The notes beneath the pieces were generated by a model, which saw only the letters and a list, made by a program, of their open reading frames with translations, made no database searches and had not been told where the DNA came from. A stretch of 57,638 nt of DNA, counting the filler, from Sphacelaria rigidula (lineage: Eukaryota), in NCBI GenBank assembly GCA_964200075.2. It is 8 parts of 8 records of this genome, joined end to end, with 100 filler letters (N's around TTAATTAATTAA, not from the genome) between each part and the next. Parts side by side here need not be neighbours in the genome. Positions count along the whole stretch, not along the records: positions 14,437 to 21,553 come from CAXNAA020016401.1; 7 more parts are not named here. One strand, written 5' to 3'. The position numbers and the translations under genes are program-made. Of the stretch, positions 20,116 to 21,019 are shown piece by piece (position 1 is the first letter of the stretch; the number at the start of each line of letters is the position of its first letter).

Positions 20116-20253
20116 CAGTTGCACGCTATTTCAGCCCACGTCTCTGAGATATTCGAGTTCAATACATGAGGAAACTACAAGAGCCCATAATTCGACAGAT
20201 GACGCAAAATAGTGTATAAACAACATTGGTCTTGTCAGACTTGGACGGGGGGG

Positions 20254-20326
20254 CGTACTCATTTGTTGCTTGCCTTAGTCGTGTGACCATTGACCACGCA
20301 TCCCTTTCGAGACGGAGCACGAGCAC
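20254..20326 (-). mobile_element. 5'-truncated LINE-A 3' end with target-site duplication
   Basis: Flanked by direct repeats GACTTGGACGGGGGGG at 20238-20253 and 20327-20342. Confidence 0.85.
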
Positions 20327-21019
20327 GACTTGGACGGGGGGGGGGGTAAATGGTAGCGCGGGGGACAAGAAATGGCCGTCCGCGGAAGTGCTTTCTACCG
20401 TGAGTTCATTGGTGGTATCCAATGTTTTCACGAATGCCGTACAAGTGGCAATGCGTTCGGATGACATTTTTTTTTTTTGGGATACTTGGAATATGGAAAT
20501 AATAAAATATTGAAAAAAAAAAGTTCTTATCCGGATATTCAACCCTTTTGGAACTCGCGAAAAACAGTACAAAGTCCCATATGCGAGCTTTCGTCACCGG
20601 GAAAACGTCACTTCGAGTTTGGTGCACGAATCAGTCACATTAGTATACTTGAACTTAGAGTGGTGCACCATTTCGGTGGGCTGCATCATCAACACTAGCA
20701 GAAAAACAACCACATCTTGCCCAAGAAAACGTCAATTGCAAATCGTCACTTTTCCATTAACACTTCCAGAAGGGTTAATACACGGATCGCCGCGGAATCA
20801 TTTGTCACCCGAGCGGTTGGACTCTACCGTTTCGGCCTGTTACACACACGAATAGTGATGCCCCCAAACACACGAACACATCGATAGACAGTGTTAACGA
20901 TAAAGTATCTATCCCTGCCCCCCCCATTTCTTCCCACCCGGGGATGAAATTGCTCTGTCTCACCTCCAGACACCATGGGCGTGCTGTGCTATCTACCGTT
21001 TTCGCTAGTCAGGCCGTTT

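Follow-up and report, generated by a model that had tools for sequence, protein, structure and literature searches.

A LINE of probable RTE-X type in the brown alga Sphacelaria rigidula with C-tracts at its junctions and inside a target-site duplication

The L1 retrotransposon carries a poly(A) tail and nicks its target at a T-rich site, and its target-site duplication (TSD) starts with an A-run that matches the tail. Microsatellite-specific LINEs occur in the R1 and Tx1 groups. Among brown algae, the transposable-element library of Ectocarpus, which is manually curated and long-read-based, contains elements in which the simple sequence is C (PMC12477816). According to its Supplementary Material 3, RTEX-1_Ec32 has a "single EN-RT ORF; (C)n 3'" and a TSD scored as "C-rich", and RTEX-2_Ec32 has "(C)n termini/TSD", again with a "C-rich" TSD. 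The non-autonomous partners RTEX-N1/N2_Ec32 share the 3' end of the autonomous elements and have a "C-rich" TSD, RTEX-N1 "can be present in tandem", and the other Ectocarpus LINEs described there have tails of (CAA)n (RTE-1/2) or (CA)n (CRE-1). RTE-X is the most abundant LINE group of Ectocarpus, with 16,418 copies (PMC12477816), an RTEX-1 is reported to have been active recently in Saccharina japonica (PMC4421812), and RTEX is a recognised Repbase clade (PMC5753468).

An earlier note on the DNA analysed here knew of no described poly(C)-specific LINE, a statement overturned by these Ectocarpus families, which are already recorded with (C)n ends and C-rich TSDs; where novelty is concerned, this is the third of the refuting outcomes that the note had listed. 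The C-tract trait is not new, being on record for related brown-algal RTE-X elements in the supplement of PMC12477816. The trait appears only in a table of that supplement, with 0 occurrences of "C-rich" in the main text, and the literature on poly-C tails in retrotransposons yielded nothing else relevant among the matches listed. As far as these sources go, a (C)-directed mechanism is so far on record only as a curator's remark, without analysis. The family described below, LINE-A, is therefore of value less as a discovery than because it confirms the trait in a second genome and shows one junction that is well resolved.

We analyzed a stretch of 57,638 nucleotides from Sphacelaria rigidula (the window), which consists of 8 pieces of ~7117 bp with linkers every ~7217 bp, an arrangement that does not imply adjacency in the genome. 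A 21-mer of the family end, GGCAAGCAACAAATGAGTACG, had 7 matches in the window (at most 3 mismatches) versus 0 in 100 shuffles, and tblastn with a full-length relative identified nine copies (c1 to c9), every one of them a 3' fragment. These copies map to residues at or beyond 1126 of 1328 in one relative (P0005) or 1171 of 1360 in another (P0003), C-terminal to the reverse transcriptase (RT), and they fall in 4 of the 8 pieces: c1 in piece 3 (14437-21553) and the rest in pieces 4, 6, and 8. A 642-nt reference, built from public contigs, was used for alignment and for the identity of the last 60 nt. Measured against this reference, the shortest copy is c4 with 62 nt and the longest c8 with about 620 nt; truncation at the 5' end is variable and the 3' end is common, all nine being 3' fragments (c1 being flanked by a 16-nt TSD), and the two copies of piece 8 that adjoin each other, c7 and c8, are identical at 55/60 and 51/60 positions, respectively. 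When translated, the longer copies show a degraded ORF with a Cys/His motif, ending ...GQxTKASNK, and a TGA stop 5 nt before the element end; the degraded ORF C-terminus in c8 includes the Cys/His motif.

Table 1 Positions of the features located in the window, counted along the whole stretch; tails and C-runs of the LINE-A copies are given in element sense unless a strand is named.
Feature	Position	Strand	Details
Linkers	7119-7218, 14337-14436, 21554-21653, 28771-28870, 35988-36087, 43205-43304, 50422-50521		N44-TTAATTAATTAA-N44
TSD copy, 3' side of c1	20238-20253	-	GACTTGGAC 20238-20246 + G7 20247-20253 on + strand; C7 + GTCCAAGTC in element sense
c1	20254-20326	-	73 nt, 5'-truncated 3' end; 20254-20320, 67 nt of 3' end; 20321-20326, 6-nt GTGCTC at 5' junction
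TSD copy, 5' side of c1	20327-20346	-	GACTTGGAC 20327-20335 + G11 20336-20346 on + strand; C11 + GTCCAAGTC in element sense
c2	22095-22430	-	C-rich tail CCGTCTCCCCCCCGTCCT 22077-22094; without 5' C-run, boundary uncertain
c3	36879 to 37138-37152	-	C-rich tail 36862-36878; old, 48/60; 5' end 2-16 nt from c4 tail
c4	37173-37232	-	tail C5GC5GC6 37155-37172; C7 adjoining 5' end 37233-37239; 60/60 identical
SINE-like element	37237-37336	-	~100 nt; last ~55 nt align with LINE-A 3' end; ends ...ATGGGTACA + C7
c5	37825-37964	-	tail C7TTC5 37811-37824; without 5' C-run
c6	42659-42726	-	tail C32AC4 42622-42658; nearest 5' C7 37 nt upstream, 42764-42770
c7	53263-53415	+	C11 53248-53258, then 4 nt; tail CCGCGCCCCTCCCC 53416-53429
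c8	53431-54053	+	longest (~620 nt); tail TC7TCTCCC 54054-54067; begins directly after c7 tail
c9	56577-56702	+	C10 56567-56576 adjoining; internal duplication; last ~40 nt lost
Repeat B	37337-37806, 21654-22076, 14437-14491	-	opens CCTGGTCTGGCGAAAACCCGGCG...
~35-nt tandem units	52308-52356, 57210-57290, 27947-28061, 15864-15975		resemble SINE-like 3' end (...CATGAT.A..GTAC + short C-run)
Homopolymers without recognisable adjacent LINE-A	46728-46757, 7253-7273, 43170-43191, 42486-42503, 36088-36109, 11534-11546, 11624-11633		C30, C21, G22, G18, G9CG12, C13, C10, in this order
gag-pol-like frames	1513-7118	+	in-frame stop 5346-5348; frame change near 3711-3756; cut by linker
Tandem array	47988-48509		period ~155 nt, 77-90% identity; related units 49427-49670 (self-comparison)
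Tandem array	38031-38298		period ~42 nt (self-comparison)

The full-length relatives P0003 and P0005 were found by searching with a 211-aa ORF tail, and each combines an endonuclease and an RT in one protein, along with an N-terminal region and a Cys/His motif at the C-terminus. Exo_endo_phos covers residues 170-392 of P0003 and 142-383 of P0005 (Exo_endo_phos_2 was matched as well) and lies N-terminal to RVT_1 (740-989 and 710-959; E values of 1e-30 and 2e-32). These domains are those of the relatives, the window copies being without them; the endonuclease is of the apurinic (APE) type, not restriction-like. In a PDB search the RT resembles L1 ORF2p and R2 with E of about 1e-20, which is a general LINE RT similarity only. 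Judged from the RT and APE endonuclease predicted in its relatives, along with the 5' truncation, the common 3' end, and the TSD, LINE-A is classed as an APE-type LINE and, going by the proteins P0003 and P0005 alone, as a putative single-ORF element. Pfam gave no family for the 13 longest ORFs of the window, and Rfam and tRNA scans of the window gave no match.

All named homologues come from two brown algae, Ectocarpus sp. and Sphacelaria rigidula, with 64-69% identity, and sequencing runs that contain the stretch carry algal labels. Among proteins named for Ectocarpus, the best match to the ORF C-terminus of L001 (a LINE-A contig from public data, not a window copy) reaches only 68% identity, so that LINE-A and Ectocarpus RTEX probably represent related but different families in different genomes. 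Given the architecture, the tail type, and the host group, the best explanation is that LINE-A is of the brown-algal RTE-X type.

Copy c1 provides the well-resolved junction. On the - strand it terminates with the family 3' end, 67 nt align to positions 576-642 of the reference, and 58/60 positions are identical over the last 60 nt; the additional GTGCTC at the 5' junction repeats the element's own first 6 nt (GTGCTC GTGCTC). On either side of c1 lies the same 16-nt sequence, GACTTGGACGGGGGGG, an exact direct repeat composed of GACTTGGAC and G7, with the second copy extending to G11. This repeat is the sole direct repeat of at least 9 nt within 20150-20450 (spacing 89), which bears out the description in the earlier note of a 73-nt truncated LINE-A between direct repeats. 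In element sense the locus reads C11-GTCCAAGTC / element / C7-GTCCAAGTC, with unequal C-runs of 11 (5') and 7 (3'). At the 5' side the unique 9-mer separates the C-run from the element; at the 3' side it is the C-run that separates the element from the 9-mer. Because the exact 16-nt TSD opens with the C-run and continues with the unique 9-mer, the C-run is target DNA, beyond a mere tail, as the earlier note had proposed when it assigned this run to the duplicated target. The L1-like analogy drawn there also agrees with this arrangement, in which a C-run precedes the unique TSD part on each side of the element. Among the nine copies, c1 is the only one with a unique, non-C TSD part, the TSDs of the others being at best "C-rich" and not delimitable.

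Two further observations concern the ends of the element. The three youngest copies (c1, c4, and c6) are cut at nearly the same place: their truncation points span no more than 6 nt of the reference (575-581) and leave 62-68 nt. The predicted fold of the 3' RNA includes a helix of GUGCUC with the terminal GAGUAC, for which covariation gives negligible support, a compensatory change being seen in only 1 of 22 pairs.

At the 3' side, the next 10 bases after GAGTAC[G/C/T] contain at least 7 C in all 11 intact 3' ends, compared with 0.74% of background 10-mers. The 11 ends are those of 8 window copies (c9 is without a 3' end) and of L001, L002, and L003 from public contigs, namely 2 metagenome contigs and 1 binned-assembly contig that contain the same 3' end together with an intact 211-aa ORF tail; two scans of viral contigs for further copies returned 0 loci. 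Tail lengths lie between C7 and C32, with frequent interruptions by G or T. A poly(A) tail and an A-rich TSD start, which are traits of the L1 clade, were not found, all 11 intact 3' ends being C-rich. The run can also be followed in proteins: of 150 representatives related to the ORF C-terminus, 24 pass a filter for the C-terminal motif, and 7 of these end there and 16 extend by at least 8 aa. Each of the 16 read-through proteins has two or more Pro, encoded by CCC, among the 8 residues that follow (typically xV[R/P]PPPP), whereas Pro makes up 4.5% of the background, and such Pro-rich extensions are the expected product of read-through into the C-run. The C-run belongs to the LINE-A family as a whole.

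A C-run at every intact 3' end, whatever the flank, with lengths of ~7 to 32 C as for a slippage-prone tail, could also be read as a tail and nothing else, templated by a master copy or added through RT slippage with no target preference, so that the C-runs at the 5' side would be chance or junction filler. The 5' side bears on this directly. A run of at least 6 C ends no more than 16 nt upstream of the 5' end in 5 of the 9 copies (c1, c3, c4, c7, and c9), whereas 0.79% of random positions have one, and the binomial tails returned by the script are 4.7e-7 for at least 4/9 and 2e-11 for at least 6/9, counts that are not fully independent because two of the 5' C-runs are the tails of neighboring elements. 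The C7 of c4 and the C10 of c9 abut the element, where junction filler is possible in principle; the C6 of c3 is 2-16 nt away, the C11 of c7 is 4 nt away, and the C11 of c1 stands 15 nt off because the unique 9-mer and the 6-nt duplication intervene. The 5' end of c8 abuts a C-rich 14-mer with 10 C. A C-run within 16 nt of the 5' end is absent in three of the nine copies, namely c2 and c5, whose boundaries are uncertain because these copies are old, and c6, which has a C7 at 37 nt.

These 5' runs argue against a pure tail. Coincidence is ruled out by five of nine copies with a near C-run, and filler would sit between the 9-mer and the element, whereas the C11 of c1 lies outside the 9-mer (C11 / GTCCAAGTC / element). 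The Ectocarpus curators, moreover, scored TSDs as "C-rich" in their supplement (PMC12477816). We therefore consider a tail without target preference very unlikely. The claim in the earlier note that eight other copies touch C/G tracts holds for 8/8, seven with a C-rich run after the intact 3' end and c9 abutting C10 at its 5' end, and enrichment of C at the junctions over background is found at both sides. Its proposal of insertion into C:G tracts is well supported by the TSD layout of c1 and by this enrichment.

The copies are also nested through their tails. In piece 6, the order in element sense is the SINE-like element ending ATGGGTACA-C7, then c4, C5GC5GC6, c3, and a C-rich run. The C7 of the SINE-like element is the tract that holds the c4 insertion, and the identity of c4 (60/60) compared with that of c3 (48/60) makes c4 a young copy within a tract between two older elements. 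In piece 8, the order is C11, c7, a C-rich run, c8, and a C-rich run.

A longer repeat, B, was observed in the same surroundings. Its head is common to the ~100-nt SINE-like element, B being the longer relative, and of four occurrences of this head, three are immediately preceded by a C-run, two of these runs being the tails of c2 and c5; B follows a C10 at 14500-14509. The combination of a LINE-A tail and B recurs in two pieces of the window with 78% identity over ~525 bp, and a B-like motif, GACGCTGTGAAACA, stands in L003 ~30 nt past its C13 tail. Repeat B is possibly the counterpart of the Ectocarpus RTEX-N elements. Four places in the window contain tandem units of ~35 nt whose sequence is similar to the SINE-like 3' end, with (GATT)n-like sequence in front of them.

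Such arrays might be single events, in which the RT switches templates, leaving one RNA at its 5' end and continuing on a second at its C-tailed 3' end, and this would cover c4/c3, c7/c8, and the LINE-A tail with B in c2, c5, and L003. The similar divergence of c7 and c8 points in this direction, as do the recurrence of the tail with B in two pieces, the B-like motif of L003, and the remark on tandem RTEX-N1 in the supplement of PMC12477816. However, c4 and c3 clearly differ in age, and template switching leaves c1, c7, and c9 unexplained, since their 5' C-run follows ordinary non-element DNA. As the general origin of the arrays, template switching seems quite unlikely to us.

Our preferred reading, which we hold to be quite probable, is that LINE-A is an RTE-X-type LINE that integrates by target-primed reverse transcription at C:G tracts, with the C-run inside the TSD, and that it nests via its tails. 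The G-run strand would be nicked at a C:G homopolymer tract, cDNA synthesis would be primed by annealing of the G-rich 3'-OH to the C-rich RNA 3' end, and the second nick would fall some bases beyond the tract (9 nt past it in c1), so that the TSD would start with the C-run. The layout of c1 fits a target ...C(n)GTCCAAGTC... with the first nick at or in the opposite G-run and the second 9 nt past the tract. Most copies would be left 5'-truncated, and every insertion would leave C-tracts at both ends, presenting new targets for the LINE and for short elements sharing its last ~55 nt, from which tail-in-tail nests would result. As to the steps themselves, which strand is nicked first, priming through G:C annealing, and an RNA that ends in C are plausible inferences, in line with the priming model of the earlier note. 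Since the homopolymer is C, polyadenylation cannot be its source, and the C-run must instead be templated by the source copy, extended by slippage, or partly derived from the target. Points against this reading are that a unique TSD part is limited to c1, that the two C-runs of c1 differ in length, and that three copies have no near C-run at the 5' side.

A more far-reaching version, to which we give an even chance, is homopolymer-(C)-directed target-primed reverse transcription, in which a C-ended RNA without poly(A) anneals to the G-run 3'-OH at the nick and each insertion seeds new poly(C:G) targets, such that the elements both create tracts and home into them. If this is true, the LINE and its SINE-like partners would account for the unusually frequent long C/G tracts in these genomes.

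The window contains 12 C/G runs of at least 10 nt in 57 kb, and some of these break the assembly. Several pieces begin or end in repeats or in long G/C runs, and seven long homopolymers are without a recognisable adjacent LINE-A. Before the C10 at 11624 stands GATGGAGTA, similar to the LINE-A end and perhaps a copy with extreme truncation; these homopolymers may be free targets or tail-only remnants. Long G/C runs at the edges of several pieces (36088-36109, 43170-43191, and 7253-7273) might suggest that homopolymers arise from sequencing or assembly, e.g. as poly-G of two-colour chemistry. Against an artefact, the runs adjacent to LINE-A lie internally and agree in strand with the element, and three independent public contigs show them again, as do the 16 models of read-through proteins; C-runs are recorded as well in the manually curated, long-read-based library of Ectocarpus, according to its supplement (PMC12477816). 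We find an artefact hardly credible as the source of the LINE-A-adjacent runs.

Besides these repeats, the window contains gag-pol-like frames, probably of an LTR retrotransposon, in which a CCHC knuckle (CLNCGSSDHILARDC) is accompanied by an MDTGS motif like that of aspartic proteases. No Pfam match was obtained for the frames, and the gag-like ORF has one database relative, with 77% identity.

LINE-A may explain the origin of long poly(C:G) tracts in brown-algal genomes, and it is a clean natural parallel, in another base, to L1, whose poly(A) tail pairs at a T-rich nick; the comparison could help to separate endonuclease specificity from primer-template annealing in the target choice of LINEs. 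Like mammalian L1, LINE-A combines an APE endonuclease, as predicted from its relatives, with an RT, and shows frequent 5' truncation, a TSD that opens with the homopolymer of the tail, and nesting into older tails. Unlike in L1, the homopolymer is C and not A, the relatives have a single ORF, and the stop lies 5 nt from the tail, which leaves almost no 3' UTR.

With the LINEs that have simple-repeat tails (Ectocarpus RTE-1/2 and CRE-1, and those of the R1 and Tx1 groups), LINE-A shares such a tail and a simple repeat on both sides of the insert, and for LINE-A as for these elements the 3' end is probably recognised specifically, because non-autonomous partners share it. In contrast to simple-repeat and microsatellite LINEs, the unit in LINE-A is a single base, and the targets are dispersed tracts, not one fixed array position.

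The correspondence is closest with the RTE-X elements of Ectocarpus as described in the supplement. LINE-A resembles RTEX-1/2 in a single EN-RT ORF, a (C)n 3' end, a C-rich TSD, many 5'-truncated copies, and a brown-algal host, and it resembles RTEX and RTEX-N in having short non-autonomous partners with the last ~60 bp in common, and tandem arrangements. This likeness between LINE-A and RTEX-1/2_Ec32 is one of annotated traits, taken from table descriptions, and every one tested agrees.
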